A stretch of DNA of 64,000 bases from an uncultured Planctomycetota bacterium (GCA_963845755.1 CAWJTV010000047.1:1-64000); one strand, 5' to 3'. Counted from the stretch's first letter, positions 4,740 to 23,829 are shown. Notes: a model not told the origin generated them from the sequence alone. Numbers and translations are program-made.

Positions 4740-4797
4740 GTCTAACGACAAGTTCAGCGGCCCGCCGCAGGCGGGTCCGCTGGATCGCTTCGTGAGA
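4740..4797 (-). other. attC site 4 (R'' box interrupted by IS110 copy 2)
   Basis: Plus strand GTCTAAC...CGTGAGA followed by the IS left end. Confidence 0.85.
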
Positions 4798-6579
4798 TAC
4801 TATGTCCGGAGCGACCGGGCTGAAAACGGTGAGCCGCCGACGGTAAGCTCCTCAGAAGAGGTCTTTCGCCAAATCCCTCTCAACCTCGGAGTCTTACCAT
4901 GTCAGCGACCCACGACCTTCATCCTACCACCACCGGCTCGAACACGCTCTACCTCGCCTTCGACCTCGGCTGGACGTCCTGGAACCTCGCCTTCACCACC
5001 GCCATGGCCCAGAAGCCGCGGCTCCGCACTATCCCCGCTCGCGATCTCGAAGGTCTCCAGCGCGAGATCCTCCTCGCAAGGCACCGCTTCGCCCTCCCCG
5101 ACGACGCCTCTGTTCTCTCCTGCTACGAGGCCGGCCGCGACGGCTTCTGGCTCCATCGCGATCTCCAACACCACGCCATCACCAACTGCGTCGTCGACGC
5201 CGCCAGCATCGAGGTCAATCGCCGCGCTCGCTGCGCCAAGAGCGATCGGCTCGACGTCGGCAAGCTCTTGACCATGTTGATCCGTTATCACGGCGGCGAG
5301 CACAAGCTCTGGAGCGTCGTCCGCATCCCCACCCCCGACGATGAGGACCGCCGCCAGCCCCACCGCGAGCTGATCGCCGTCAAGGGCCAGCGCACCGAGC
5401 ACTCCAATCGCATCAAGGGACTCCTCGCCAATCTCGGCCTTGACGTCGTGGTCGATGACCAGTTGCCGGAACGTCTCGGCCAACTTCGCCAATGGGACGG
5501 GAGGCCGGTCCCGGCCGAGCTGAGTGCCCGCATCCTCCGCGAGTTCGACCGCTGGACACTGGTGGACCGCCAGGCGCGCGACCTGGAGAACGCCCAGCGG
5601 CGAGCGTTCCGCGACGACGCGACGGCTGACGTCGAGAAGCTGCGGCTGCTGCTGAACCTCAAGGCGATCGGTCCGATGAGCGCGACGCTGTTCGTCCGCG
5701 AGTTCTTCGGCTGGCGGCAGATCCAGAACCGCCGCGAGCTGGCGAGCCTCGCCGGTTTGGCCCCGACGCCGTACGCCAGCGGCGACAGTCAGCGCGAGCA
5801 AGGGATCAGCAAGGCGGGCAATCGCCGTCTGCGGTGGATGGCGGTGGAGATCGCCTGGGGCTGGCTGCACTGGCAGCCCAATAGCGCCTTGAGCCAGTGG
5901 TATCAGCGTCGGTTCGGCGAGGGCAACGCGCGGGCGCGGAAGATGGGGATTGTGGCCCTGGCCCGCAAGTTGTTGATCGCGCTGTGGCGATACCTGGAGA
6001 CAGGGCGAGGTGCCCGAGGGGGCGGAATTCACGCCGTGGGAGAAGAAGCTCAACGGCCGACTGCCTGCATCAGCAAAGGTCGGATGATCACTAAATTTGT
6101 TCATGTAATAACATTATTACTAACATGAAACCGGGGGCCTTGAGGGAAGAATCACGAGCGTACCGGGCTGGAGGGGGCGACCGGGCGAGCACGCTGGTCG
6201 GCGGCAGCCGACCGTGAGTTAGATGGGTTTGTCCCCACACCTGGCTTCGGAGTCGTCCGCGGACGAACAGAGTAACGGGTGCTCGGTCCCTTGAAGTGAG
6301 GATCGACACGGAGAGAAGGTGGTCGCGGACTCCTGGCAGGCGCGACGTGCGTGACGAAGCCACCAGCCGCCGTCTCGGGAGTTCGTCGGCAAGGGCAAGG
6401 AGTGTGCCGATCGCAGGACCACCGACGTTGTCTGGAGAACGAGAAACAGCGTGTGTCCTGGCTCCCCGCAAACGGGGAGCCAGGACACACGCTGTCGGAC
6501 TCGGAGCGATCGCTGTCCGCGCCCCGCAGGGCGCCCAGAAAAAATTAGTCGGGGGCCTTGACCTCAGCGTCTTCATAGA
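4798..6579 (+). mobile_element. IS110-family element, copy 2, inserted in attC
   Basis: Ends AGA|TACTATG ... TTCATAGA|; homologous to copy 1. Confidence 0.9.
4899..6087 (+). CDS. IS110-family transposase
   Basis: Same motifs as copy 1; single indel near 6000. Confidence 0.9.
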
Positions 6580-6644
6580 AGGCAGTAGCGGTACCCCGGG
6601 GGCCGGATGTAGAACGGCTCGTGCATCTGGCGCCCCCTCCTTCG

Positions 6645-9056
6645 GTCGGGTAAGGAGGTGAGGTTGCCCTCACCCCCTCCCCTCAGAACCGTACGTGCGC
6701 CTTGCGACGCATACGGCTCAAGCCTTCTCGAACGCCCCTCGCGGGACACAGCCCAGTCCGCCAGCCTTCCTCTTGCCGTGGATCTGCCGATGGCAGTGGG
6801 CGTGCAACAACTCCAAGTTGTCGTACGTCTCACCGCCGCCTCGATTGCGCCAGATCCGATGATGAATGTGCCAGGGTTCGTCTTCGGCCTGAAGAGGCTG
6901 CCCGCACATCACACATCGACCCCCTTGTCCCTTCCAGAGATACTCGATCCGGCCTCGACCTGCCAGGGTGTGCGTCAGCTTCCAGGCCGACCTCTCCTCC
7001 AGGTAGAGCTCCCACTCCGGATCGTAGGGGTTGGCCGCACTCCGGATCTTCCTCCACCGCAGGACCTTGACCCCGGCCGCTTTCATCAGCCGGATCCGTC
7101 CGCCGAGCCCGTGCTGTCACGGATTGTGCCCGTGAAGACCCAGTCTCGGTGGCCCTCGCGCTGGAAGTATTTCCTCTTGATCCACTTCCAGTTCTTCTCG
7201 GGATGGCGTCGGCGACACCATCTCATCAGCTTCCGGAAGATCCGATCGTCCACCGCATGGAAGATGCGCTTGCTGACCGCATAACGGTGGTACATGGTCC
7301 AGCCCTTGATCTGTTGATTCAAGCGCCGGATTAAGTCGCCCGCCGTCTTGCCGCCCGAGTCGTCGATCGTCGCCTGGATCTTGGCCAGGAACGTCTTGAT
7401 GCTCCGCTTCGATGGCTTGATCAAGACCTTGCCATTAGGGAAGCGTCGCACCGCCTGTCCCAGGAAATCGAAGCCGTCCTCAAGATGGGTGATCCTGGTC
7501 TTCTCGTGGGAGAGTTCGAGACCCCGCTTTCGTAAGAAGTGTTCCACGAGGGGCTGGACTTCACCTCGCAGGAGGACCCTTGATGTGCCGGTAATGATGA
7601 AGTCATCCGCATATCGGACCAGATGGACCTTGCCTCCCGCACGCCGTCGGCGTGTGTTGCTGAAGCGCCGCTCCAGCAACTCTTGCAACCCATCCAGGGC
7701 CCGGTTCGCCAGCGCGGGGGAGACGATCCCCCCTTGAGGTGTGCCTTCCGTGGTGGCGAACAGGACGTGCTTCTCCAGGAACCCGGCCTTCAGCCACTTC
7801 CGGAGCACCTCCTTGTCCATGGGGATATGGTCGATCAACCAACGATGGCTGATCCGATCAAAGCAGGCTTTGATATCCCCCTCCAAGATCCAGCTCGGAC
7901 CGGGCGGACCCCTGAGGATCTTGTGACACTCATCCAGGGCATCGGCACAGCAGCGTTCCAGTCGAAAGCCGTAGGAATGGCCGTCGGCGAGGGACTCTGC
8001 GATGGGATCGAGGCCCAGCAGGTAGAGGGCCTGCATGGCTCGATCGGCCATGGTAGGAATCCCTAAACCACGTCGCTGGCCGTTGCTCTTGGGAATGTAA
8101 ACCCTGCGGAGCGGTTGCGGCCGATAGCCGTGCCGACGCAGGGTGCTGAAGGCCGCCGACTTGACCTCCGGCGTGTTCCAGAGGATTCCGTCCACGCCGG
8201 GGGTCCGCGCACCCGAATTACTGACGACTCGCAAGATGGCCAGAGCCCGGCCACTGTACGAGTGGGTGAGCAGGTAGACCAGGGCTTTGGCTTTGTTCCA
8301 CCTGCCCTCCCGGACTGCCTTTACGATACGCGCCTGGAGCCGACGGACCGTGCGCCAGACTTTCTTCCAGGAAATGGAATTCCAGTCGGGCGCATGGCCG
8401 GGGACCGCACCAACAGGCGTTGCCGCCTGTGCCTTATCTGCTTTGCCCCCTGAGTCAGTTGGCCGAGGTTCTCTCGTAACGGAAGACCCGGGGGAAGTCG
8501 GCTCCCTTTCGGGCGGGGTGATGTCGCCTGTCGGCTCAACCCCTATCCGACCGGTTAGTGGCCGGCGTTCGCTTCCTCCCTCGTCCTGTACCCGCCGCCC
8601 CATGGGCTCCTCTTGCGAGTCGCCTACCCTCGCGGGGAGGACGACGGGCTTACCACGTTCCGACGATGTGCCAAGGTGGGGAGGGTCGCCGCTCTTCGCC
8701 GGTGGTACGGCATCTGCGCCAGGGGAGTTAGGAGCCCCCGGACCTGACCACGTGCCCTTTTGGCCCAAGCGTGACAGCATCTTCCGCTTGTTCTCAGTAA
8801 CGACGTTTATCGCGGCTTCACTTTACGTTGACCCGTCCACCCGATCCTGGTCCCCGACCGCGTTGATGCTGGCAGTCGCGGCGTCGGCTCGCGCTCCGGC
8901 CGCCCTCCCGAGGGAGGAGGATACGTTGTGCCGGGGGCTTGGCACCCCTCCGTTGCCGGAGGCGCACTCCCCGGTGGGATACTGCTGGCAGAACAGCAGG
9001 TGCTGTCGCCCTCTCCGAGGTCGCAGCACAGTCACATCGGCGACTTCGTGTCGCAC
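6645..9056 (-). mobile_element. Group II intron copy A
   Basis: 5' end GTGCG, 3' end ...CCTTACCCGAC; domain V GAGCCGTATGCG-GCAA-CGTACGGTTC; RT ORF. Confidence 0.95.
6718..8435 (-). CDS. ltrA: Group II intron RT/maturase with C-terminal HNH endonuclease (frameshift near 7100)
   Basis: NSGARTPGVDG, RGLGIPT, EGDIKACFD, GTPQGG, YADD, CxxC...HIHH...N...H..CH; start uncertain. Confidence 0.9.
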
Positions 9057-9113
9057 CCTAACGCCCAAGATCAGGGGCCCGCGCAGCGGGTCCGCTGCAT
9101 CGCCTCGTTAGAC
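9057..9113 (-). other. attC site 5 (last base of R' displaced by intron A)
   Basis: GTCTAAC...GTTAGG|intron|C. Confidence 0.9.
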
Positions 9114-9886
9114 ATGAATTCCGGCTGGCGCCGTTCCAGAACGATGATCCTCAGTTGCTCGACTGTAAGCATCGGTTTGCTTCTGTGGATCATTCGGTGA
9201 CAGTTCGAGCAGACGATAGCCAACTCGCTCAGCCGAGTCTTGTGCCTTTCGGTAAGGCGGGAGAGAGGAGTCCGATGATGGCACTCGGCGAAGCTTTTGC
9301 CCAGAAGACCGTAGACGTGCTCGAAATCGAAGTCACATGATTCGCAAAGCAAGGCACCGGTCCGTTCAAGCACTATCTCCTTCTTTCGGCGTACCGCTCG
9401 GGATTTCCGCTCCTTCAATCGGTGAAGCCGGAACTGTACGCCCCCTTCCTCGAATCCTTCTAGGTCGGTTGCTGCCAGATCTCGGTAATCGACTGTTGCA
9501 GCGTCTTCAACCAAGAGGTGCAGGCCATGATACTCGCTCACGTCGACCGCCCCGACACGGTGCGAGACGTGAAGCTTGCCGCTCTTCAGCGTGAGGTTCC
9601 ACCGTTGGGAGCCATTGACCTTTGAAGCGGTCATCGTGCCTTCGACAAGGAGATCGCGAACTACCGAGTACGGAACAACAAAGTGGTCCCGCGGGTCGTC
9701 TGAATGCGTCCGGTAGACAACGAGATTCGGTCCCTCGCGACCACGACGCCTGGCTTCTTCGATACGATGGCGCCATGTTCCCAGAAACACCGCGAACCAG
9801 CCGGTGTCGGCGTTCGCCATTACGACGTACTCACCTCGCGATTCGAGGTCTTGTCTCAACAGATCCGCGATACTTGCCGTCTGCAT
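9071..9886 (-). CDS. HNH endonuclease (McrA-like C-terminal domain) cassette
   Basis: CESCDFDF...ECHHRTPL...VCSNCHRMIH. Confidence 0.8.
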   Translation of the reverse strand: MQTASIADLLRQDLESRGEYVVMANADTGWFAVFLGTWRHRIEEARRRGREGPNLVVYRTHSDDPRDHFVVPYSVVRDLLVEGTMTASKVNGSQRWNLTLKSGKLHVSHRVGAVDVSEYHGLHLLVEDAATVDYRDLAATDLEGFEEGGVQFRLHRLKERKSRAVRRKKEIVLERTGALLCESCDFDFEHVYGLLGKSFAECHHRTPLSRLTERHKTRLSELAIVCSNCHRMIHRSKPMLTVEQLRIIVLERRQPEFMSNEAMQRTRCAGP

Positions 9887-9989
9887 TCTTACGACGCCTC
9901 GAGGGTGATTGATGTGGTTAAAGCGCCGCATGAATCCATGCGATTATAGTATTGTATTGTTGACTGCCGGCTCACGCCTCCTCAGACGC

Positions 9990-10175
9990 TCATGGGGGCG
10001 GGATTTGGAGGTCGCGGCAGATCTTCCGAGCCAGGTACTCGTAGATCTCGGTGTGCCGAGGGACGGCCGATGTCGCGTTCGTGGCCGGGTTCACGTAAAT
10101 GCTGTGCTTGCCGCCCTCGCGGAGCAGCCGGCAGCCATGTGCCTGCAGGTGCCTGATGAGGTCGTGGCGCTTCAT
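9990..10175 (-). CDS. hicA: HicA-family toxin
   Basis: REGGKHSIY...VPRHTEI...ICRDL. Confidence 0.9.
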   Translation of the reverse strand: MKRHDLIRHLQAHGCRLLREGGKHSIYVNPATNATSAVPRHTEIYEYLARKICRDLQIPPP

Positions 10176-10390
10176 ACCATCAGCTCGAACGGCTCGCGGG
10201 TCACGGCTTGACCCCGCAGCGACTCCTCGGCGAGTTCACGATTGCTCTCGATGACCAGAGTGACGGCCTCGCGGAGGTTCTCTCGGGCCTCCTCGAGCGT
10301 CGCACCCTGAGTATTGGCCCCGGGCAGCTCCTCGACGAAGGCGACGTAGCCTCCTTCCGGCACCTGGACGAAGACGGCGGTCAATTGCAT
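10172..10390 (-). CDS. hicB: HicB-family antitoxin
   Basis: YVAFVEELPGANTQGATLEEARENLREA; promoter-like TTGTCA-17-CATGAT at 10473-10445. Confidence 0.9.
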   Translation of the reverse strand: MQLTAVFVQVPEGGYVAFVEELPGANTQGATLEEARENLREAVTLVIESNRELAEESLRGQAVTREPFELMV

Positions 10391-10483
10391 TCGGCCCTCC
10401 CGGCCTCGCATGGCGTTGGTTCGGCTGCAGCGAGACCTGCTACCATCATGTCCTCACCGCGCGACGATGACAACAGCGTGGCG

Positions 10484-12898
10484 GTCGGGTAAGGAGGTGA
10501 GGTTGCCCTCACCCCCTCCCCTCAGAACCGTACGTGCGCCTTGCGACGCATACGGCTCAAGCCTTCTCGAACGCCCCTCGCGGGACACAGCCCAGTCCGC
10601 CAGCCTTCCTCTTGCCGTGGATCTGCCGATGGCAGTGGGCGTGCAACAACTCCAAGTTGTCGTACGTCTCACCGCCGCCTCGATTGCGCCAGATCCGATG
10701 ATGAATGTGCCAGGGTTCGTCTTCGGCCTGAAGAGGCTGCCCGCACATCACACATCGACCCCCTTGTCCCTTCCAGAGATACTCGATCCGGCCTCGACCT
10801 GCCAGGGTGTGCGTCAGCTTCCAGGCCGACCTCTCCTCCAGGTAGAGTTCCCACTCCGGATCGTAGGGGTTGGCCGCACTCCGGATCTTCCTCCACCGCA
10901 GGACCTTGACCCCGGCCGCTTTCATCAGCCGGATCGGTCGCGCCGAGCCCGTGCTGTCACGGATTGTGCCCGTGAAGACCCAGTCTCGGTGGCCCTCGCG
11001 CTGGAAGTATTTCCTCTTGATCCACTTCCAGTTCTTCTCGGGATGGCGTCGGCGACACCATCTCATCAGCTTCCGGAAGATCCGATCGTCCACCGCATGG
11101 AAGATGCGCTTACTGACCGCATAACGGTGGTACATGGTCCAGCCCTTGATCTGTTGATTCAAGCGCCGGATCAAGTCGCCCGCCGTCTTGCCGCCCGAGT
11201 CGTCGATCGTCGCCTGGATCTTGGCCAGGAACGTCTTGATGCTCCGCTTCGATGGCTTGATCAAGACCTTGCCATTAGCGGAAGCGTCGCACCGTCTGTC
11301 CCAGGAAATCGAAGCCGTCCTCGAGATGCGTGATCCTGGTCTTCTCGTGGGAGAGTTCGAGACCCCGCTTTCGTAAGAAGTGTTCCACGAGGGGCTGGAC
11401 TTCACCTCGCAGGAGGACCCTTGATGTGCCGGTAATGATGAAGTCATCCGCATATCGGACCAGATGGACCTTGCCTCCCGCACGCCGTCGGCGTGTGTTG
11501 CTGAAGCGCCGCTCCAGCAACTCTTGCAACCCATCCAGGGCCCGGTTCGCCAGCGCGGGGGAGACGATCCCCCCTTGAGGTGTGCCTTCCGTGGTGGCGA
11601 ACAGGACGTGCTTCTCCAGGAACCCGGCCTTCAGCCACTTCCGGAGCACCTCCTTGTCCATGGGGATATGGTCGAGCAACCAACGATGGCTGATCCGATC
11701 AAAGCAGGCTTTGATATCCCCCTCCAAGATCCAGCTCGGACCGGGCGGACCCCTGAGGATCTTGTGACACTCATCCAGGGCATCGGCACAGCAGCGTTCC
11801 AGTCGAAAGCCGTAGGAATGGCCGTCGGCGAGGGTCTCCGCGATGGGATCGAGGCCCAGCAGGTAGAGGGCCTGCATGGCTCGATCGGCCATGGTGGGAA
11901 TCCCTAAACCACGTCGCTGGCCGTTGCTCTTGGGAATGTAAACCCTGCGGAGCGGTTGCGGCCGATAGCCGTGCCGACGCAGGGTGCTGAAGGCCGCCGA
12001 CTTGACCTCCGGCGTGTTCCAGAGGATTCCGTCCACGCCGGGGGTCTGCGCACCCGAATTACTGACGACTCGCAAGATGGCCAGAGCCCGGCCACTGTAC
12101 GAGTGGGTGAGCAGGTAGACCAGGGCTTTGACTTTGTTCCACCTGCCCTCCCGGACTGCCTTCACGATACGCGCCTGGAGCCGACGGACCGTGCGATAGA
12201 CCTTCTTCCAGTAGATGGAATTCCAGTCGGGCGCATGGCCGGGGAGCCGCACCAGCAGGCGTTGCCGCCTGTGACATATCTGCTTTGCCCCCTGAGTCAG
12301 TTGGCCAAGGTTCTCTCGTGACGGAAGACCCGGGGGAAGTCGGCTCCCTTTCGGGCGGGGTGATGTCGCCTGTCGGCTCAACCCCTATCCGACCGGTTAG
12401 TGGCCGGCGTTCGCTTCCTCCCTCGTCCTGTACCCGCCGCCCCATGGGCTCCTCTTGCGAGTCGCCTACCCTCGCGGGGAGGACGACGGGCTTACCACGT
12501 TCCGACGATGTGCCAAGGTGGGGAGGGTCGCCGCTCTTCGCCGGTGGTACGGCATCTGCGCCGGGGGAGTTAGGAGCCCCCGGACCTGACCACGTGCCCT
12601 TTTGGCCCAAGCGTGACAGCATCTTCCGCTTGTTCTCAGTAACGACGTTTATCGCGGCTTCACTTTACGTTGACCCGTCCACCCGATCCTGGTCCCCGAC
12701 CGCGTTGATGCTGGCAGTCGCGGCGTCGGCTCGCGCCTCGGCCGCCCTCCCGAGGGAGGAGGATACGTTGTGCCGGGGGCTTGGCACCCCTCCGTTGCCG
12801 GAGGCGCACTTCCCGGTGGGATACTGCTGGCAGAACAGCAGGTGCTGTCGCCCTCTCCGAGGTCGCAGCACAGTCACATCGGCGACTTCGTGTCGCAC
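10484..12898 (-). mobile_element. Group II intron copy B (slightly diverged)
   Basis: Same ends and RNA domains as copy A. Confidence 0.95.
10557..12277 (-). CDS. ltrA: Group II intron RT/maturase/HNH, copy B (frameshifts near 12245 and 11280)
   Basis: ATG at 12277; RT and HNH motifs. Confidence 0.88.
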
Positions 12899-12958
12899 CC
12901 TAACGCCCAAGATCAGCGGCCCGCCGACAGGCGGGTCCGCTGCATCGCCTCGTTAGAC
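12899..12958 (-). other. attC site 6 (intron B in R')
   Basis: GTCTAAC...GTTAGG|intron|C. Confidence 0.9.
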
Positions 12959-12968
12959 CGCCCTTGCC

Positions 12969-13154
12969 TCACGGGTCGGGGACACCGAGCTGACGGCAGA
13001 TGGCCCGGGCGGTCGGGTTGGCGATCTCACGGTGCCGGGGCACGGCCGACCGCCGGCCATTCGCCGGGTTCTCCCAGATGGAGTGGTCCGACCCTTCCCG
13101 GGCCAGCACGCAGCCGTGGGATCGCAGGTGTCGGATCAGGTCCCGCCGGCTCAC
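12969..13154 (-). CDS. hicA: HicA-family toxin
   Basis: REGSDHSIW...VPRHREI...ICRQLG. Confidence 0.9.
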   Translation of the reverse strand: MSRRDLIRHLRSHGCVLAREGSDHSIWENPANGRRSAVPRHREIANPTARAICRQLGVPDP

Positions 13155-13438
13155 GGCACGACCACCCCGGCCGGCCGCACTTCGACGCCCGTGCTCGCCC
13201 GCAGGTGCAGGTGGATCGGCTCCTCAACGTCCGCGTCCGGGTCGGAGAGCGACGGGTCGGGGCGGGGCAGCGGCTCCCCGCGCTCAAGGGCCAACGCCGC
13301 CATGTCGAGCAGGGCGGAGGCGAGCAACCGCCGGGCCTCGGCCAAGTCCGAACCGCAGGTGATCGCCCCCGGGAAGTCCAGGACGTGGGCATGTACCCCG
13401 CCCTCGACGAACTGGTAGGCCGCCTTGTACGTGAGCAT
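13151..13438 (-). CDS. hicB: HicB-family antitoxin
   Basis: MLTYKAAY...DFPGAITCGSDLAEA; promoter-like TTGCTG-17-TAGCAT at 13501-13473. Confidence 0.85.
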   Translation of the reverse strand: MLTYKAAYQFVEGGVHAHVLDFPGAITCGSDLAEARRLLASALLDMAALALERGEPLPRPDPSLSDPDADVEEPIHLHLRASTGVEVRPAGVVVP

Positions 13439-14502
13439 CGGGATGGCCTCGGCCTGACGGAACCACTCCCCTATGCTACACAGTCCGCGGCAGTGCAGCA
13501 ACTCGTCGATCGGCTTCCGGGCTTCCGGCTCACTGCTCGCTGGGTCGGGTAAGGAGGTGAGGTTGCCCTCACCCCCTCCCCTCAGAACCGTACGTGCGCC
13601 TTGCGACGCATACGGCTCAAGCCTTCTCGAACGCCCCTCGCGGGACACAGCCCAGTCCGCCAGCCTTCCTCTTGCCGTGGATCTGCCGATGGCAGTGGGC
13701 GTGCAACAACTCCAAGTTGTCGTACGTCTCACCGCCGCCTCGATTGCGCCAGATCCGATGATGAATGTGCCAGGGTTCGTCTTCGGCCTGAAGAGGCTGC
13801 CCGCACATCACACATCGACCCCCTTGTCCCTTCCAGAGATACTCGATCCGGCCTCGACCTGCCAGGGTGTGCGTCAGCTTCCAGGCCGACCTCTCCTCCA
13901 GGTAGAGCTCCCACTCCGGATCGTAGGGGTTGGTCGCACTCCGGATCTTCCTCCACCGCAGGACCTTGACCCCGGCCGCTTTCATCAGCCGGATCCGTCG
14001 CGCCGAGCCCGTGCTGTCACGGATTGTGCCCGTGAAGACCCAGTCTCGGTGGCCCTCGCGCTGGAAGTATTTCCTCTTGATCCACTTCCAGTTCTTCTCG
14101 GGATGGCGTCGGCGACACCATCTCATCAGCTTCCGGAAGATCCGATCGTCCACCGCATGGAAGATGCGCTTACTGACCGCATAACGGTGGTACATGGTCC
14201 AGCCCTTGATCTGTTGATTCAAGCGCCGGATTAAGTCGCCCGCCGTCTTGCCGCCCGAGTCGTCGATCGTCGCCTGGATCTTGGCCAGGAACGTCTTGAT
14301 GCTCCGCTTCGATGGCTTGATCAAGACCTTGCCATTAGGGAAGCGTCGCACCGCCTGTCCCAGGAAATCGAAGCCGTCCTCAAGATGGGTGATCCTGGTC
14401 TTCTCGTGGGAGAGTTCGAGACCCCGCTTTCGTAAGAAGTGTTCCACGAGGGGCTGGACTTCACCTCGCAGGAGGACCCTTGATGTGCCGGTAATGATGA
14501 AG

Positions 14503-16265
14503 TCATCCGCATATCGGACCAGATGGACCTTGCCTCCCGCACGCCGTCGGCGTGTGTTGCTCAAAGCGCCGCTCCAGCAACTCTTGCAACCCATCCAGGG
14601 CCCGGTTCGCCAGCGCGGGGAGATCACGCCCCCAACAATGTTGCAAAGAACCCTGTTGGGGGCCTCCCTCAAAAGGGGACGGACTGATCCGATACACGAT
14701 GCGGACCTCCTGCTCGTCGATCTCGACCTTCTTCACCAAAGCCCGAACGATCGCCCGTCGCGTGGCCCAGTCCGGCTCTTGCAACTCGTGGGAAACGCGT
14801 CTCGCGAACTCCTCCAACTGGCCGATCACCAGCCGCAGTTCGGCTTCCTGGTTGGCCTCGTCAATCTGCTGCCGACACTCATCCTCCAGTTTGGCCAGGC
14901 GCTGCGCGCTGCCAAGATCCTCGGCTCGAACTCCGACTTGTTAAGTAATCCCTCGCCGTAGGCATCGATCAATCGAGCGATCATCTTTTTTAGATTCGCA
15001 ATCAATTTGTTGAGATGCTTCACCTCGCGGTCTGGGCCTGTCTCCGGCCCGTGCAGCCGCCGTTCGTACTCCACTCGAACCCGTTCGGGCTCGGACAAGA
15101 GATGACGCACATCTTCCCAGACGGCGGCGTCCAAGACATCCGTGCGGACCTGCTTGTTCCAACACAGTCGCTGGCCACCGAAACGATAGGCGTCGGAGCC
15201 GGTGCAGCGGTAGTAGGCGTAGGGGACCTTCCCCTTGGCCGAGGCCCGGCTCACCGGCTTGCCGTAGCAGCCGTAGCCGCACCGTTTGCAGACAACTAAC
15301 CCCTGGAGGAGATAGCGGTCGCCACGGAGCCGTTCGCGCCGGCGTTGCCGGTTCTCCTCGATTTGAGCTTGAACCATCCCGAAGAGTTCCTCGCTCACCA
15401 AACCGGGGACATCGATGAAGATTTGTTCTTGCGTGGATGTATCGACCCGAGAGACAGGACGCCGGGGCTGCTCAGGACGGCCGCGTTGCGGCGCAGCCGC
15501 TTCGGCTTGAGGGCGCCCGCCGCGTCTTGCCGAAACCGGCCGTCCCCTTGTAGGCAGGGTTCCTGAGATACGACCAGATCACCGAGCGGTCCCAGGCCGA
15601 TTTGCCCGTCCGCGTGGGGACGCCGTCGCGTTGCAGACGTCGGCAAACCTCACCGATCGAGCATCGTTCCTGGCCGACCCACCCGAAGATCTTCCGCACG
15701 ATCCGCGCCTCGTCGGCCACGACCTGATAACGCGCCGCGCCGCCGCCCTCATGCTTGCCGATGTAGCGGTAGCCATACGGCGCACCGCTGAGCACGTTGA
15801 CCGAGCCGTGGCGGGCGGCGTACTGCTTGCCTCGGCGACACCGCTCCATGATCTTGGCACGCTCGTATTCAGCGATCATGCCCTGGACCTGCACAAGCAG
15901 GTTCTCTTCGGGTCCGTGACCCGGGGATTGCGCAGGAAGACGACCTCAACGCCGCACCGGGCCAGTTCCTCGAGTATCAAAACCTGGTAGGCATATTTGC
16001 GCGAAAGTCGATCGGGATCGAGAATGTAGAGGCGATCGATGGTCCCAGCAGCGGCCTGGTCCCGAAGTCGTTCGAGGCCCGGGCGGACCAGGGTATCCCC
16101 GGTGTAGCCATCGTCCACAAAGCACAGCTCGGGGGAGCATACCAAGCCGTCGCTCGCGACGCGCTGCCTGATCGCCTCAAGCTGGCTGGCGATCGTGTCC
16201 TCCTTGGACTGTTGGTCCCCGGAGACCCGGCCATAGGTCCCCACACAGAGATCGTGATTGAGCAT
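14503..16265 (-). CDS. Large serine recombinase (resolvase + recombinase + Zn ribbon + coiled coil), frameshifted
   Basis: YGRVSG, DDGYTG, RPGL, DRLSR, AEYER, APYGY, LRNPAYKG, YLLQGLVVCKRCG, YYRC; four ORF pieces. Confidence 0.88.
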
Positions 16266-16640
16266 GGCTGGTCAAGCTCCTCTGGCCTTTGATCGGAGTC
16301 CCTGCATCGTTGTGGTGGCCTGCTCGTTGTCGTGAGATCGCGATCGCGACCGTTCCAGGTGGCGAGAAACGACCGGGATCAAGGCCTGGTATGCCGGCGC
16401 GATCACCTCATCCTGAAACCGGGTGAACTCGAAATGGCGGGTGACGGGAGGGCTCAGGGCTGACCTCCGTTGAGATGTAATCATGTTGACTCATCCTCTC
16501 CAAGACCGCGGCTGTCAGCCTGCCTTGGACGGGGATCGAGCCCGGGCTGCCATCCTTGCCCATACTTCGGTCGGAGCCGCGATCTGGAAATGACAGAGTC
16601 AGGGATCAGGGACAGTTTTGCAACATTGTTGGGGGCGTGA
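14624..16640 (-). mobile_element. Minimal large-serine-recombinase element, 2017 bp, with perfect 24-bp terminal inverted repeats
   Basis: TCACGCCCCCAACAATGTTGCAAA at 14624-14647 and its reverse complement at 16617-16640; flanks rejoin to the RT sequence seen in the other intron copies. Confidence 0.9.
16272..16484 (-). CDS. Small hypothetical protein upstream of the recombinase
   Basis: 70-aa ORF with GAGGA upstream, ending 7 bp before the recombinase ATG. Confidence 0.5.
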   Translation of the reverse strand: MITSQRRSALSPPVTRHFEFTRFQDEVIAPAYQALIPVVSRHLERSRSRSHDNEQATTTMQGLRSKARGA

Positions 16641-17973
16641 CGATCCCCCCTTGAGGTGTGCCTTCCGTGGTGGCGAACAGGACGTGCTTCTCCAGGAACC
16701 CGGCCTTCAGCCACTTCCGGAGCACCTCCTTGTCCATGGGGATATGGTCGATCAACCAACGATGGCTGATCCGATCAAAGCAGGCTTTGATATCCCCCTC
16801 CAAGATCCAGCTCGGACCGGGCGGACCCCTGAGGATCTTGTGACACTCATCCAGGGCATCGGCACAGCAGCGTTCCAGTCGAAAGCCGTAGGAATGGCCG
16901 TCGGCGAGGGACTCTGCGATGGGATCGAGGCCCAGCAGGTAGAGGGCCTGCATGGCTCGATCGGCCATGGTAGGAATCCCTAAACCACGTCGCTGGCCGT
17001 TGCTCTTGGGAATGTAAACCCTGCGGAGCGGTTGCGGCCGATAGCCGTGCCGACGCAGGGTGCTGAAGGCCGCCGACTTGACCTCCGGCGTGTTCCAGAG
17101 GATTCCGTCCACGCCGGGGGTCCTGCGCACCCGAATTACTGACGACTCGCAAGATGGCCAGAGCCCGGCCACTGTACGAGTGGGTGAGCAGGTAGACCAG
17201 GGCTTTGGCTTTGTTCCACCTGCCCTCCCGGACTGCCTTTACGATACGCGCCTGGAGCCGACGGACCGTGCGCCAGACTTTCTTCCAGGAAATGGAATTC
17301 CAGTCGGGCGCGTGGCCGGGGACCGCACCAACAGGCGTTGCCGCCTGTGCCTTATCTGCTTTGCCCCCTGAGTCAGTTGGCCGAGGTTCTCTCGTAACGG
17401 AAGACCCGGGGGAAGTCGGCTCCCTTTCGGGCGGGGTGATGTCGCCTGTCGGCTCAACCCCTATCCGACCGGTTAGTGGCCGGCGTTCGCTTCCTCCCTC
17501 GTCCTGTACCCGCCGCCCCATGGGCTCCTCTTGCGAGTCGCCTACCCTCGCGGGGAGGACGACGGGCTTACCACGTTCCGCCGATGTGCCAAGTGGGGAG
17601 GGTCGCCGCTCTTCGCCGGTGGTACGGCATCTGCGCCGGGGGAGTTAGGAGCCCCCGGACCTGACCACGTGCCCTTTTGGCCCAAGCGTGACAGCATCTT
17701 CCGCTTGTTCTCAGTAACGACGTTTATCGCGGCTTCACTTTACGTTGACCCGTCCACCCGATCCTGGTCCCCGACCGCGTTGATGCTGGCAGTCGCGGCG
17801 TCGGCTCGCGCTCCGGCCGCCCTCCCGAGGGAGGAGGATACGTTGTGCCGGGGGCTTGGCACCCCTCCGTTGCCGGAGGCGCACTCCCCGGTGGGATACT
17901 GCTGGCAGAACAGCAGGTGCTGTCGCCCTCTCCGAGGTCGCAGCACAGTCACATCGGCGACTTCGTGTCGCAC

Positions 17974-20386
17974 GTCGGGTAAGGAGGTGAGGTTGCCCTC
18001 ACCCCCTCCCCTCAGAACCGTACGTGCGCCTTGCGACGCATACGGCTCAAGCCTTCTCGAACGCCCCTCGCGGGACACAGCCCAGTCCGCCAGCCTTCCT
18101 CTTGCCGTGGATCTGCCGATGGCAGTGGGCGTGCAACAACTCCAAGTTGTCGTACGTCTCACCGCCGCCTCGATTGCGCCAGATCCGATGATGAATGTGC
18201 CAGGGTTCGTCTTCGGCCTGAAGAGGCTGCCCGCACATCACACATCGACCCCCTTGTCCCTTCCAGAGATACTCGATCCGGCCTCGACCTGCCAGGGTGT
18301 GCGTCAGCTTCCAGGCCGACCTCTCCTCCAGGTAGAGCTCCCACTCCGGATCGTAGGGGTTGGCCGCACTCCGGATCTTCCTCCACCGCAGGACCTTGAC
18401 CCCGGCCGCTTTCATCAGCCGGATCCGTCGCGCCGAGCCCGTGCTGTCACGGATTGTGCCCGTGAAGACCCAGTCTCGGTGGCCCTCGCGCTGGAAGTAT
18501 TTCCTCTTGATCCACTTCCAGTTCTTCTCGGGATGGCGTCGGCGACACCATCTCATCAGCTTCCGGAAGATCCGATCGTCCACCGCATGGAAGATGCGCT
18601 TACTGACCGCATAACGGTGGTACATGGTCCAGCCCTTGATCTGTTGATTCAAGCGCCGGATTAAGTCGCCCGCCGTCTTGCCGCCCGAGTCGTCGATCGT
18701 CGCCTGGATCTTGGCCAGGAACGTCTTGATGCTCCGCTTCGATGGCTTGATCAAGACCTTGCCATTAGGGAAGCGTCGCACCGCCTGTCCCAGGAAATCG
18801 AAGCCGTCCTCAAGATGGGTGATCCTGGTCTTCTCGTGGGAGAGTTCGAGACCCCGCTTTCGTAAGAAGTGTTCCACGAGGGGCTGGACTTCACCTCGCA
18901 GGAGGACCCTTGATGTGCCGGTAATGATGAAGTCATCCGCATATCGGACCAGATGGACCTTGCCTCCCGCACGCCGTCGGCGTGTGTTGCTGAAGCGCCG
19001 CTCCAGCAACTCTTGCAACCCATCCAGGGCCCGGTTCGCCAGCGCGGGGGAGACGATCCCCCCTTGAGGTGTGCCTTCCGTGGTGGCGAACAGGACGTGC
19101 TTCTCCAGGAACCCGGCCTTCAGCCACTTCCGGAGCACCTCCTTGTCCATGGGGATATGGTCGATCAACCAACGATGGCTGATCCGATCAAAGCAGGCTT
19201 TGATATCCCCCTCCAAGATCCAGCTCGGACCGGGCGGACCCCTGAGGATCTTGTGACACTCATCCAGGGCATCGGCACAGCAGCGTTCCAGTCGAAAGCC
19301 GTAGGAATGGCCGTCGGCGAGGGACTCTGCGATGGGATCGAGGCCCAGCAGGTAGAGGGCCTGCATGGCTCGATCGGCCATGGTAGGAATCCCTAAACCA
19401 CGTCGCTGGCCGTTGCTCTTGGGAATGTAAACCCTGCGGAGCGGTTGCGGCCGATAGCCGTGCCGACGCAGGGTGCTGAAGGCCGCCGACTTGACCTCCG
19501 GCGTGTTCCAGAGGATTCCGTCCACGCCGGGGGTCCGCGCACCCGAATTACTGACGACTCGCAAGATGGCCAGAGCCCGGCCACTGTACGAGTGGGTGAG
19601 CAGGTAGACCAGGGCTTTGGCTTTGTTCCACCTGCCCTCCCGGACTGCCTTTACGATACGCGCCTGGAGCCGACGGACCGTGCGCCAGACTTTCTTCCAG
19701 GAAATGGAATTCCAGTCGGGCGCGTGGCCGGGGACCGCACCAACAGGCGTTGCCGCCTGTGCCTTATCTGCTTTGCCCCCTGAGTCAGTTGGCCGAGGTT
19801 CTCTCGTAACGGAAGACCCGGGGGAAGTCGGCTCCCTTTCGGGCGGGGTGATGTCGCCTGTCGGCTCAACCCCTATCCGACCGGTTAGTGGCCGGCGTTC
19901 GCTTCCTCCCTCGTCCTGTACCCGCCGCCCCATGGGCTCCTCTTGCGAGTCGCCTACCCTCGCGGGGAGGACGACGGGCTTACCACGTTCCGACGATGTG
20001 CCAAGGTGGGGAGGGTCGCCGCTCTTCGCCGGTGGTACGGCATCTGCGCCAGGGGAGTTAGGAGCCCCCGGACCTGACCACGTGCCCTTTTGGCCCAAGC
20101 GTGACAGCATCTTCCGCTTGTTCTCAGTAACGACGTTTATCGCGGCTTCACTTTACGTTGACCCGTCCACCCGATCCTGGTCCCCGACCGCGTTGATGCT
20201 GGCAGTCGCGGCGTCGGCTCGCGCTCCGGCCGCCCTCCCGAGGGAGGAGGATACGTTGTGCCGGGGGCTTGGCACCCCTCCGTTGCCGGAGGCGCACTCC
20301 CCGGTGGGATACTGCTGGCAGAACAGCAGGTGCTGTCGCCCTCTCCGAGGTCGCAGCACAGTCACATCGGCGACTTCGTGTCGCAC
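17974..20386 (-). mobile_element. Group II intron copy D (uninterrupted), abutting copy C
   Basis: Minus-strand junction ...TTACCCGAC|GTGCGACAC... with no intervening base. Confidence 0.95.
18047..19765 (-). CDS. ltrA: Group II intron RT/maturase/HNH, continuous reading frame
   Basis: Unbroken ORF (open upstream to 20110) with all RT motifs, thumb and HNH; start uncertain. Confidence 0.92.
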   Translation of the reverse strand, partial: KAQAATPVGAVPGHAPDWNSISWKKVWRTVRRLQARIVKAVREGRWNKAKALVYLLTHSYSGRALAILRVVSNSGARTPGVDGILWNTPEVKSAAFSTLRRHGYRPQPLRRVYIPKSNGQRRGLGIPTMADRAMQALYLLGLDPIAESLADGHSYGFRLERCCADALDECHKILRGPPGPSWILEGDIKACFDRISHRWLIDHIPMDKEVLRKWLKAGFLEKHVLFATTEGTPQGGIVSPALANRALDGLQELLERRFSNTRRRRAGGKVHLVRYADDFIITGTSRVLLRGEVQPLVEHFLRKRGLELSHEKTRITHLEDGFDFLGQAVRRFPNGKVLIKPSKRSIKTFLAKIQATIDDSGGKTAGDLIRRLNQQIKGWTMYHRYAVSKRIFHAVDDRIFRKLMRWCRRRHPEKNWKWIKRKYFQREGHRDWVFTGTIRDSTGSARRIRLMKAAGVKVLRWRKIRSAANPYDPEWELYLEERSAWKLTHTLAGRGRIEYLWKGQGGRCVMCGQPLQAEDEPWHIHHRIWRNRGGGETYDNLELLHAHCHRQIHGKRKAGGLGCVPRGAFEKA

Positions 20387-20443
20387 CCTAACGCCCAAAT
20401 TCAGCGGCCCGCGCAGCGGGTCCGCTGCAATGCCTCGTTAGGA
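20387..20443 (-). other. attC site 7 (tandem introns D+C in R')
   Basis: TCCTAAC...GTTAGG|intron D|intron C|C. Confidence 0.9.
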
Positions 20444-20961: not shown

Positions 20962-21019
20962 GCCTAACGCCTAAATTCAGCGGCCCGCGCTGCGGGTCCG
21001 CTGCAATGCTTCGTTAGAC
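20962..21019 (-). other. attC site 8
   Basis: GTCTAAC...GTTAGGC. Confidence 0.9.
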
Positions 21020-22268
21020 CGTTCCCTGTGATACTCAAGGAGCTTTTCAGCAGGCTGATCATGCGGATCACGCGGGAGCCGAATCTTACGCCCGTCAAAC
21101 TCGGCATAGTTCGAAGCCGCAAGCACTGGGTCAACAATAATGGTCATCGTCGCTGTATCGACGGTGAGAAGGCCCAGGTCGAAAAGAGTGTGTAGATCGG
21201 TGCGGAGAAGAAGCCCGTTTCGCACGTGGTTGGTCGCCGGCCCTTGATACGGGATAATATGTGCTGCCTCCAAGACCTGTTCCACGGTACAGCCAGAGAA
21301 GCAACAGCTCGAATCATATGCACGGAGTAGCGCTTCGCGAAACTCCGATTGGCCCCGGCGCTGAACGATGAGAGCGAGGTTCCGGGCGCGCTCATCGTCG
21401 ATTACCTGCGGATCGAACGGCAATACAGGGCTTCCGGCCTCGTCGCCAGCGAGTGAATTGCGATCGTCGTCCGGACTAATCGCGTCGATGTATTCCACGA
21501 CGGCGAGCTCATGCCGGGCGATGCTCCGGTGGTCGGGTGCAATGCCGAGCCTCAAGACTTGATCGAGGTACGTCCGATGGGCATGCCGGATCTCGTTCCA
21601 CTCGCCGAGAGTATCCATCCGGGGTGTGTAATACCCATTTCGGGATGGGGTACGTCGATAACGCGGGTACGATTGTTCGTCCCATCGCCAAGACACCAGG
21701 CGCGACCAGTCAACAGCCTGGACATCGGGATCGGTCGTGACCCAAACCCTGTCGGATTCCAGAGTCAGAACGATAAGCCTCCCAGCGAACAGGCGCAGTG
21801 CTTTCCCTTGAAGTGGACGAGGCTCCATTCTGGCTTCCGACTGCGAATGTACCGGAGCGACTCCGCAAAAATAGAAAACATAGTCCTGCGAACGTCGGGA
21901 TCCGACGTGATCGCGTCTAGCTTCTGCGCGATGGTCAACGTCGTGGATTGGGAGTCTGCGAGTCGGTTGAACGGGGAGATCGAACGTTCCAGGTACAGCC
22001 GCAACTCCTCAGCCACGAGCTCACGCAGGTCCTCCCCGTCTCCAGTGAAGTCGAATACGCCCTCCTTCCCGAGTCGTGAGGAGACGGCAAGCTTTAACCT
22101 GGTTGTCGCGTGGCGGCTGGAGCGTGCGGCGCGGAGGATTCGATTGGAACCCGGCCCCCGGCGGGGTGGGCCGGCGAAGAAGGCCCAGCCGTCGGGATTT
22201 GAACGAGGCTCCGCAATGAGATCCGGGTACTCCATCGCTAGAAAATCGCGAATCTCATCCGGCGTCAT
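20977..22268 (-). CDS. HNH endonuclease cassette with unknown N-terminal region (frameshift near 21790)
   Basis: RRGQSEFREALL...CCFSG...LEAAHI...NGLLLRTDLHTLFD; ORFs 21765..22268 and 20977..21828 overlap. Confidence 0.8.
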
Positions 22269-22299: not shown

Positions 22300-22359
22300 G
22301 CCTAACGCTAAAGATCAGCGGCCCGCCGTCGGCGGGTCCGCTGCATCGCCTTGTTAGAC
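22300..22359 (-). other. attC site 9
   Basis: GTCTAAC...GTTAGGC. Confidence 0.9.
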
Positions 22360-22917: not shown

Positions 22918-22975
22918 GCCTAACGCCAAGGTTCAGCGGCCCGCGCCGCGGGTCCGCTGCAACCGCAGGTTAGGC
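22918..22975 (-). other. attC site 10
   Basis: GCCTAAC...GTTAGGC. Confidence 0.9.
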
Positions 22976-23628: not shown

Positions 23629-23829
23629 AAGACGCCCACCTTGCTCGACCGAGTCCGTGAAGTTGTCTGGAAGTTGCATTACAGCATTCGCACGAGGGTT
23701 GCCTACCTCCAGTGGATCAAGCGGCTCATCCTCGTTCATGGCGAGCGGCGTCTTCTCGAAGTGGGCGAAGGCGAGTTCGAAGACTCCCTGAGCCATCGGG
23801 CGTCCGAGGGAAACGTCGCGGCCTCGACG
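23629..23829 (+). pseudogene. intI: Integron integrase N-terminal relic
   Basis: LLDRVREVVWKLHYSIRTRVAYLQWIKRLILVHG...LSHRASEGNVAAST matches the IntI N-terminal SAM-like domain; similarity stops before the catalytic domain. Confidence 0.8.

Follow-up and report, generated by a model that had tools for sequence, protein, structure and literature searches.

Four copies of a group II intron lie in an integron cassette array between positions 6645 and 20386 of a 64-kb stretch of DNA (the window), part of contig C47 of the 14.27-Mb genome (G000) of an uncultured soil bacterium of the Planctomycetota. The element is very probably a mobile intron of the chloroplast-like (CL), IIB1-type lineage whose exon-binding sequences (EBS) are matched to the right end (R′) of the attC repeats that host it. 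The analysis shows its anatomy, its most likely class, three intron-exon pairings (by covariation), the exclusive occupation of attC and the exact intron-less form of one site. The mechanism appears to be ordinary IIB retrohoming; what is unusual is the target, the strand, the orientation and the scale.

Intron copies and their attC sites

All four copies are on the minus strand, and each carries two Rfam matches: group-II-D1D4-7 (RF02012; 103-105 bits, gathering threshold 34) at 8850-9000, 12692-12842, 17767-17917 and 20180-20330, and domains 5 and 6 (D5/D6, RF00029; 61.8 bits each, gathering threshold 40) at 6645-6721, 10484-10560, 13544-13620 and 17974-18050. The boundaries were obtained by repeat finding and flank extraction. 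Every copy has the ends GTGCG...CCCGAC (GUGCG...AC in the RNA), which agree with the group II ends GUGYG/AY, and D5 has 34 nt with the AGC triad. With ribozyme domains, ends, reverse transcriptase (RT) and maturase all present, the copies are, as judged from sequence, mobile group II introns. The intact unit is 2413 nt long.

6645-9056, minus strand: copy A, 2412 nt (one base missing), with the frame interrupted ahead of the HNH part
10484-12898, minus strand: copy B, 2415 nt, 99% identity; protein frame broken in several places (369, 357 and 201 codons)
13544-17973, minus strand: copy C, 4430 nt, interrupted downstream member of a tandem; matches intron positions 1-1341 and 1338-2413
17974-20386, minus strand: copy D, 2413 nt, the intact intron on the upstream side of the tandem, with a 701-codon open frame

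Four sequencing runs were examined among the 20 that share words with 6200-9500, and contigs of two of them (X1 and X11) have an extra G behind position 7100, in copy A. Copies D and C stand head to tail (...CCCGAC/GTGCG... at 17974/17973), and this junction fixes both intron ends to the base, as do the sites of the intron-free paralogues described below. The 5′ exons end in ...GGGCGTTAGG at 9057, 12899 and 20387, and the 3′ exons begin with C at 6644, 10483 and 13543. Each occupied site in the window is an attC R′ box divided GTTAGG/intron/C on the cassette strand. A preliminary description of this DNA had reported such a split at three occupied sites; the split holds, but there are four copies, the third site (20387/13543) being a tandem.

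The repeats that receive the introns were recognised by folding the minus strand of the window as 57-61-nt imperfect palindromes between RYYYAAC and GTTRRRY, the features that define attC. A profile built from seven of the window's repeats was run on the whole genome with nhmmer and found 97 attC-like repeats: 31 in contig C39, 23 in C41, 15 in C18, nine in C47, eight in C3, seven in C34 and four singles.

20387-20443, minus strand: attC with copies D and C; its R′ core GTTAGG ends at 20387 (nhmmer, 63.3 bits)
12899-12958, minus strand: attC with copy B (nhmmer, 59.5 bits)
9057-9116, minus strand: attC with copy A (nhmmer, 62.7 bits)
20962-21019, minus strand: unoccupied attC ending GTTAGGC (fold scan and nhmmer)
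1424-1482, 1964-2018, 4742-4797, 22300-22359 and 22918-22975, minus strand: further unoccupied attC (fold scan and nhmmer)
23641-23829, plus strand: integron integrase remnant, the N-terminal 63 residues, divergent from the array (TIGR02249 positions 1-63, E 5.5e-9; Pfam Phage_int_SAM_4, 1e-10)

The introns are cassette-sense, because the cassette open reading frames (ORFs; for example 9071-9931 and 20977-21828) and the R″ to R′ direction of the repeats run on their strand. They lie downstream of the expected position of the cassette promoter, Pc. The orientation given in the preliminary description is borne out by the ORFs, the R″ to R′ direction and the divergent integrase remnant alike. A full integrase gene is located at C3:161245-162186 (TIGR02249, 484.9 bits; cut-off 265), with the first attC ~450 bp away on the divergent side, and the second attC-like repeat counted from it holds an intron copy. 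This is the only integrase gene in the genome above the family cut-off, though there are six arrays of one attC family; integrase fragments accompany several of the arrays (C39:444197, C41:17824, C18:75908 and window 23641).

In the genome as a whole, the family (F1) has seven copies: A-D in C47, two in C41 (22422-24834 and 27937-30349, the latter identical to copy D over 2413 nt) and one in C3 (155845-160277). Six of the seven directly follow an attC ending ...GTTAGG (GTTAGA in one case) and precede a C; the seventh, copy C, follows copy D. An ORF-less element of 862 nt that is 77% identical (F3; C41:16110-16971) is inserted at the same base of another attC. Seven of the 97 attC-like repeats are thus occupied, six by F1 and one by F3. 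Chance does not account for this pattern, since the six sites of the intron and that of its ORF-less relative all fall at the same base of attC-like repeats.

Intron class

18047-20110, minus strand: frame of the intron-encoded protein, 687 aa from the first ATG, with Pfam domains and a PDB match

The protein contains the Pfam domains RVT_N (1.7e-27), RVT_1 (1.4e-35), GIIM (4.9e-23) and HNH (1.3e-10, residues 623-668), and its RT sequence includes YADD. The true start is probably further in, because homology to the TeI4h RT begins only at residue 123. An RT0 region of the form NxGxxTPGVDG and a C-terminal CxxC/HNH domain had been noted previously, and both can be recognised: RT0 as SNSGARTPGVDG, and the CxxC and HNH histidines in the PDB alignment. 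The 701-codon frame is kept in three of the seven genome copies, and these three are 99.96-100% identical.

In a comparison with all PDB chains, the best match was the TeI4h maturase/RT (6me0_C; E 1.2e-179, 602 bits, query residues 123-670, 548 residues), whereas class IIC RTs reached 105-136 bits and LtrA 126 bits. The introns of Thermosynechococcus elongatus, TeI4h included, belong to subclass IIB1, close to EcI5, and the CL lineage is placed under IIB in the cited part of that study (Mohr, 2010; PMC2882425). The endonuclease (En) domain is described as absent from all introns of classes C, D, E and F in the section cited of a review (Zimmerly and Semper, 2015; PMC4424553). The intron is therefore not IIC, as it has an HNH domain and its RT scores far higher with TeI4h than with IIC RTs; from its sequence it is most likely CL/IIB1. 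The IIB/chloroplast-like lineage proposed earlier is in keeping with the HNH domain and with 602 bits for TeI4h against at most 136 for IIC and IIA RTs. The PDB scores do not point to a grouping of the RT with class IIC, which would speak against that lineage (in this check IIC RTs score 125-136 bits only). Three features of IIB/CL introns are all present: EBS3 in an internal loop of domain 1 (D1), an EBS2 pairing with its intron-binding sequence in the exon (IBS2), and the En (HNH) domain.

Pairing between the intron and its exons

The three EBS elements are positioned as follows in the four copies.

20057-20062 (D), 8727-8732 (A), 12569-12574 (B) and 17644-17649 (C), minus strand: EBS1 CCUAAC, the loop of a 7-bp hairpin
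20123-20127 (D), 8793-8797 (A), 12635-12639 (B) and 17710-17714 (C), minus strand: EBS2 CUGAG, in an unpaired stretch between two helices
20024 (D), 8694 (A), 12536 (B) and 17611 (C), minus strand: EBS3 G363, identified by complementarity to exon base +1; in a 4-nt internal loop

The hairpin CCGGGGG-CUCCUAACU-CCCCUGG, whose loop CCUAAC had been proposed as the EBS1 that targets GTTAGG, is present in all four copies, with the loop at intron positions 325-330. Relatives for comparison were collected from genomes of the same order (matches in 20 of 121, G000 included, with up to four matches scored per genome; 20 full regions used), from GTDB genomes (27 loci) and from JGI metagenomes (34 loci). 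A structure-based search located the EBS1 hairpin in 36 of the 44 elements with a recognisable 5′ end; it did not recognise one in the other eight (L107, L115, L123, L040, L128, L117, L037 and L126). Removal of duplicates left 29 combinations of flank and hairpin, with 16 EBS1 sequences. Counting Watson-Crick and G-U pairs, all six loop bases pair with the six nucleotides upstream of the intron in 21 of the 29, and at least five do so in 26, compared with 6/6 in 21 of 766 mismatched controls. L119, the only complete miss, belongs to a tandem and is flanked by another intron. On this metagenome contig, the 3′ end of an intron resembling the family F2 described below is followed at once by an intron with EBS1 CCGAAC, in a head-to-tail arrangement.

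The EBS1 stem also varies in a compensated manner, as five of its seven positions show several types of base pair, and GGGGG/CCCCU, GGAUG/CAUCC and AUGGGU/GCCCAU all preserve pairing. Compensation extends to attC itself: F3 of G000 has CCUAAC at GTTAGG, and L099, a relative in genome G071, has UCUAAC at GTTAGA. The loop position, on which the proposal had been stated to depend, is supported by both lines of evidence, i.e. by the compensatory changes in the stem of this D1 terminal loop and by covariation with the upstream 6 nt over the 16 EBS1 sequences. In a paralogous family of the same genome (F2; 81% identical, in C13, C45 and fragments), which lies after TCTCCCGCACTYTYGATG and before A and not in attC, the homologous hairpin loop CAUCGA complements UCGAUG upstream of its site. 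F2 (C13:328696-331085, C45:64868-67258 and fragments; also L112 and L124) always follows a ~20-nt GGYTCTYCCGCACTYTYGATG and precedes A. Its target motif occurs in unrelated surroundings, soil metagenomes included.

EBS2 consists of the five bases located two bases before CAAGC, which in F1 are CUGAG at intron positions 260-264. With the last match taken as the anchor, and with L119 (a tandem) and L130 (no anchor) left out, EBS2 pairs with exon positions -13 to -9 at all five bases in 11 of 23 combinations and at four or more in 19; the corresponding figures for mismatched controls are 15 and 95 of 486. In attC these bases face CUUGG, which lies in the spacer preceding R′; F3 forms five Watson-Crick pairs with it, and F1 three Watson-Crick and two G-U pairs. 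For EBS3, only one alignment column, G363, complements the +1 base in 15 or more of the 17 elements. It fits in 16 of them, with G-C, A-T and T-A pairs all represented (copy D was omitted, its 3′ flank being copy C).

Folding of D1 with RNAalifold (12 sequences) gave double changes at 15 of 46 pairs. In the resulting structure EBS1 occupies a terminal loop, EBS2 is unpaired, and G363 falls in an internal loop of 4 nt flanked by two helices, each of them with double changes. The positions of EBS1 and EBS3 expected of a folded domain I are thereby recovered, and in this model the three EBS are placed as in IIB introns. On either side of EBS1 the bases stay the same (CU...U) no matter which base is at +1, and this speaks against the delta pairing of IIA introns.

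Site specificity and relatives

GTTAGGC, the sequence complementary to EBS1 and EBS3, occurs 293 times in the genome on both strands, 46 times inside attC intervals (including complements of R″ of the GCCTAAC type) and 247 times outside. None of the 247 outside sites holds an F1 copy, as traced by the 5′ end. When IBS2 is added (YTTGGNNGTTAGGC), all four unoccupied matches are in attC. The three pairings can thus account for the confinement to attC without recognition of a hairpin, because the extended motif falls only in attC. The alternative, that base pairing is insufficient and the folded single-stranded attC hairpin is required as for the IIC-attC introns, would explain the absence of traced copies from the 247 outside sites, and the same idea was raised for UHB.I2, an intron from a metagenomic cassette array, in the cited part of its description (Sonbol and Siam, 2021; PMC7923331). 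It is nevertheless improbable: the motif with IBS2 is already confined to attC (4/4 unoccupied matches), relatives with other EBS1 and EBS2 reside at sites whose flanks share the paired bases only, and L120, from a soil contig, has the same junction at a partial attC whose left half is unrecognisable, only the right half being discernible. Moreover, R′ in a folded top strand would presumably pair with R″ and be hidden from EBS1. Single-stranded or folded DNA may still have a helping role in recognition by pairing.

A second alternative is that the copies were spread as passengers of cassettes, by the integron integrase or by segmental duplication, and that the EBS1 match survives from a single ancient insertion. 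The intron does start five bases past the integrase crossover and would travel with the downstream cassette, and the six cassette arrays of the genome share cassettes. However, the downstream exons of the six F1 sites all differ, as do all the upstream cassettes, and two of the downstream cassettes have intron-free paralogues, at C18:79074 (GTTAGA/CGGTGGGGCAATG) and at C39:452004 (GTTAGC/CGGCCTGCATTCC), the latter with a -1 base unlike that of the occupied copy. In another genus, UCUAAC is the EBS1 of an ORF-less relative inserted at GTTAGA, and three other genomes have the junction at unrelated cassettes, so that the passenger explanation is hardly credible. The cassette at C39:452004 and its counterpart at C41:22421 differ as empty GTTAGC/C and occupied GTTAGG/intron/C; this could be allelic variation in the first bases of the cassette.

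The three other genomes (G069, G070 and G071) are of related Planctomycetota. In G069, L092 (identical to L035, on an uncultured Planctomycetota metagenome-assembled genome contig) has 91% DNA identity and the junction GTTGGG/.../C; L093 in G070 has an attC junction at GTTAGG, and the 3′ exon is T in L038; and in G071 it is the ORF-less L099 that is at an attC junction. L139 (GTTAAA, EBS1 UUUAAC) and L036 (GTTAGA) are two further candidates for insertion in attC, for which folding of the flanking sequence gave no clear outcome.

A tree of 25 elements, built from the first 640 nt with the EBS columns included, has three clades. Members homing to attC are found in two of them, in each case mixed with members that do not, and the starred branches force at least two changes of target, with three given by parsimony. 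On this tree attC targeting is taken to have been gained or lost more than once. The preliminary description had named homologues mostly outside attC as an outcome that would count against it. The wider family is indeed mostly outside attC, yet each member is at a site fitting its own EBS1. These relatives support targeting by base pairing rather than refute it, because their other EBS1 sequences match their own flanks.

ORF-less mini-introns of ~860 nt keep D1-D3 and D5-D6 (C41:16110-16971; L097, L098, L099, L100 and L110). They form a family that was seen in five genomes and has four or more target specificities, of which two are attC; its members are presumably mobilised in trans. Several relatives of a third clade begin TTGCG and not GTGCG (L070, L074, L078, L086, L087, L105 and L107).

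Proposed mechanism and activity

In the proposed mechanism, the RNA-protein particle would recognise the cassette (top) strand by three pairings. EBS2 CUGAG would pair with CUUGG at -13 to -9 in the spacer before R′, EBS1 CCUAAC with GUUAGG at -6 to -1, the first six bases of the R′ core, and the EBS3 G with C at +1, the seventh R′ base. By analogy with known IIB biology, reverse splicing would take place between GTTAGG and C, the HNH domain would cut the other strand, the RT would copy the intron in (target-primed reverse transcription), and the intron would be spliced out of the Pc-driven array transcript, in which case it could be nearly silent, as had been proposed. As the insertion is five bases 3′ of the integrase crossover (G/TT), each intron forms the beginning of the cassette that follows it. 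A second copy could enter the intact GTTAGG before a resident copy, giving tandems, and the 860-nt relatives without an ORF, whose EBS1 is identical or compensated, presumably depend on the protein in trans. The earlier proposal of sequence-based targeting, with the GTTRRR core as IBS1, was upheld on all points tested.

Evidence on the state of site A comes from sequencing reads. In soil run X2 (labelled 'DNA?'), a contig runs from 6644 straight into 9057, so that exactly 2412 nt with the ends GT..AC are missing, leaving 184 nt on one side of the joint and 36 nt on the other; it is the exact intron-less form of the site. If X2 is DNA, site A exists in nature both with and without the insertion; if it is RNA, the joint is the spliced exon.

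The elements could also be dead relics whose pattern records past events only. Copies A, B and C are broken, and metatranscriptome runs X11 and X19 provided no RNA joint. This explanation is very unlikely, given three copies that are 99.96-100% identical with intact 701-codon frames, the intact copy D lying before the broken copy C, and the intron-less site A in run X2.

Several observations weigh against a mobile CL/IIB1 intron that homes to attC by base pairing. The class assignment is drawn only from neighbours in the PDB, and no RT of class A, B, D, E or F has been solved. At the -1 position there is a mismatch or wobble at two sites (GTTAGA in C41 and GTTGGG in G069). The EBS2 pairing of F1 is weak, with its two G-U pairs, L092 pairs at 2/5 bases, and a CTTGA site has one pair fewer. 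At the site that received the tandem copy, +1 is G instead of C, and four perfect targets remain unoccupied. In the 25-element tree the EBS columns were unmasked. The empty site is a single contig with a depth of 2.78, whose shorter side measures 36 nt, and the DNA label of its run is a guess; in runs X11 and X19 neither exon joint nor flanks were found, only intron pieces with 90-99% similarity.

A broader possibility, speculative and rather unlikely, is that the intron lineage co-evolved with the integron as its harbour and vehicle, with the integrase moving intron and cassette as a unit and ectopic recombination generating new cassettes. An occupied attC may still recombine, because insertion just 3′ of the crossover leaves GTTAGG intact. 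The integrase would then move the intron and its cassette together between arrays and replicons, and recombination of an attC-resident copy with an ectopic one could put an attC end before a new gene, a route to new cassettes.

Relation to known introns

In the cited sections of reviews and primary work, homing to attC is treated as peculiar to a single class C lineage, which lacks En and recognises the bottom-strand hairpin (PMC4424553; PMC3001079). These IIC-attC introns, S.ma.I2 and its relatives, are described there as a monophyletic subset of class C that inserts into the attC bottom strand, opposite to transcription (Leon, 2010; PMC3001079). The present element resembles them as a group II intron that settles specifically in integron attC. 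However, the features attributed to them in those sections (class C, lack of En, bottom strand and antisense to the cassettes) are all missing from the present intron, which is of CL/IIB type, has an HNH domain, inserts in the top strand at R′ in the cassette sense and uses a 6-nt EBS1 together with EBS2 and EBS3.

The closest precedent is UHB.I2, reported in the cited parts of its description as a single IIB1/CL1 intron in a cassette array of a soda-lake metagenome, in the cassette sense and immediately after attC, with ends UUGCG..GU, no EBS3 bulge and homologues whose flanks are not conserved (Sonbol and Siam, 2021; PMC7923331). By description and not by sequence, the two agree in the class of RNA and protein, in cassette orientation and in the position right after attC, and some of the relatives collected here begin TTGCG, like the UUGCG of UHB.I2. 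In contrast, UHB.I2 is one copy on one contig, and the cited parts make no claim that its EBS1 reads the R′ core; the present intron has seven copies at six sites, relatives in three other genomes and three pairings supported by covariation. An unusual IIC intron in an attC of an Enterobacter cloacae integron, cited in the same source (PMC7923331), is also sense-oriented, a single case; it differs from the present intron in being of class IIC. The preliminary description had taken known attC introns to be class IIC and antisense. The IIC-attC lineage is so described, but the sense-oriented UHB.I2 (CL1/IIB1) and E. cloacae (IIC) introns, as these sources portray them, had been overlooked. A full-text search of the literature returned UHB.I2 as the only precedent, in a single copy and with no mechanism described, and nothing joining group II introns, integrons and Planctomycetes.

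The nearest solved protein (6me0, 602 bits) links the intron with the T. elongatus family (TeI4h and TeI3c). According to the cited part of its description, this IIB1 family multiplied in its genome by changes of EBS, and ORF-less members were mobilised in trans (PMC2882425). The T. elongatus introns are portrayed there as targeting diverse chromosomal sites, whereas the target of the present intron is a recombination site of another mobile system.

The present intron would represent a second, unrelated lineage that reaches attC by ordinary pairing of EBS and IBS, on the other strand and in sense orientation. It is present in many copies, is accompanied by ORF-less satellites and compensated variants, and has relatives in several genomes. 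If this is true, retroelements with different mechanisms have settled in the recombination sites of integrons on at least two occasions. The intron might then modify cassette expression and attC function in large environmental integrons, and its family would offer a natural series of retargeted IIB1 introns.

Serine-recombinase elements in intron RT genes

14621-16632, no strand assigned: serine-recombinase insert in copy C, 2012 bp, at intron position ~1338 in the RT coding region, with inverted ends and frameshifted

The boundaries of this insert were set from BLAST coordinates and inspection of the junctions, and three ORF pieces match Pfam Resolvase, Recombinase and Zn_ribbon_recom. The 2-kb element has inverted ends of ~23 bp (TCACGCCCCCAACAATGTTGCAA...), and its large serine recombinase frame is broken in all six genome copies, the others being at C3:156925-158938, C16:2845-4854, C24:270-2285, C6:31937-33956 and C22:796-2825. 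Four of the six are at the same point of group II intron RT genes, in two families, within the codons for PQGG(I/V)xSP. The remaining two are in TPQGG-like sequence elsewhere, and both orientations occur. The element looks like a site-specific parasite of intron RT genes.

A different element of ~2.7 kb, with an intact 517-aa large serine recombinase (Pfam), interrupts relatives at intron position ~1001, in sequence coding for an RT motif (L093/L038 at about 1414556-1417288 of C15 in G070; L096 and L111 in G071). A nested second intron, considered for L038, L093, L096 and L111, was rejected: Rfam gave no match to a second intron, and the inserts encode serine recombinases.

Other genes in the cassette array

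Two cassettes code for HNH-type nucleases, at 9071-9931 (minus strand; HNH, 7.4e-6) and 20977-21828 (minus strand; HNH_2, 2.5e-15). The array also contains an IS110-family transposase gene at 4899-6128 (plus strand; Transposase_20, 4.7e-16).

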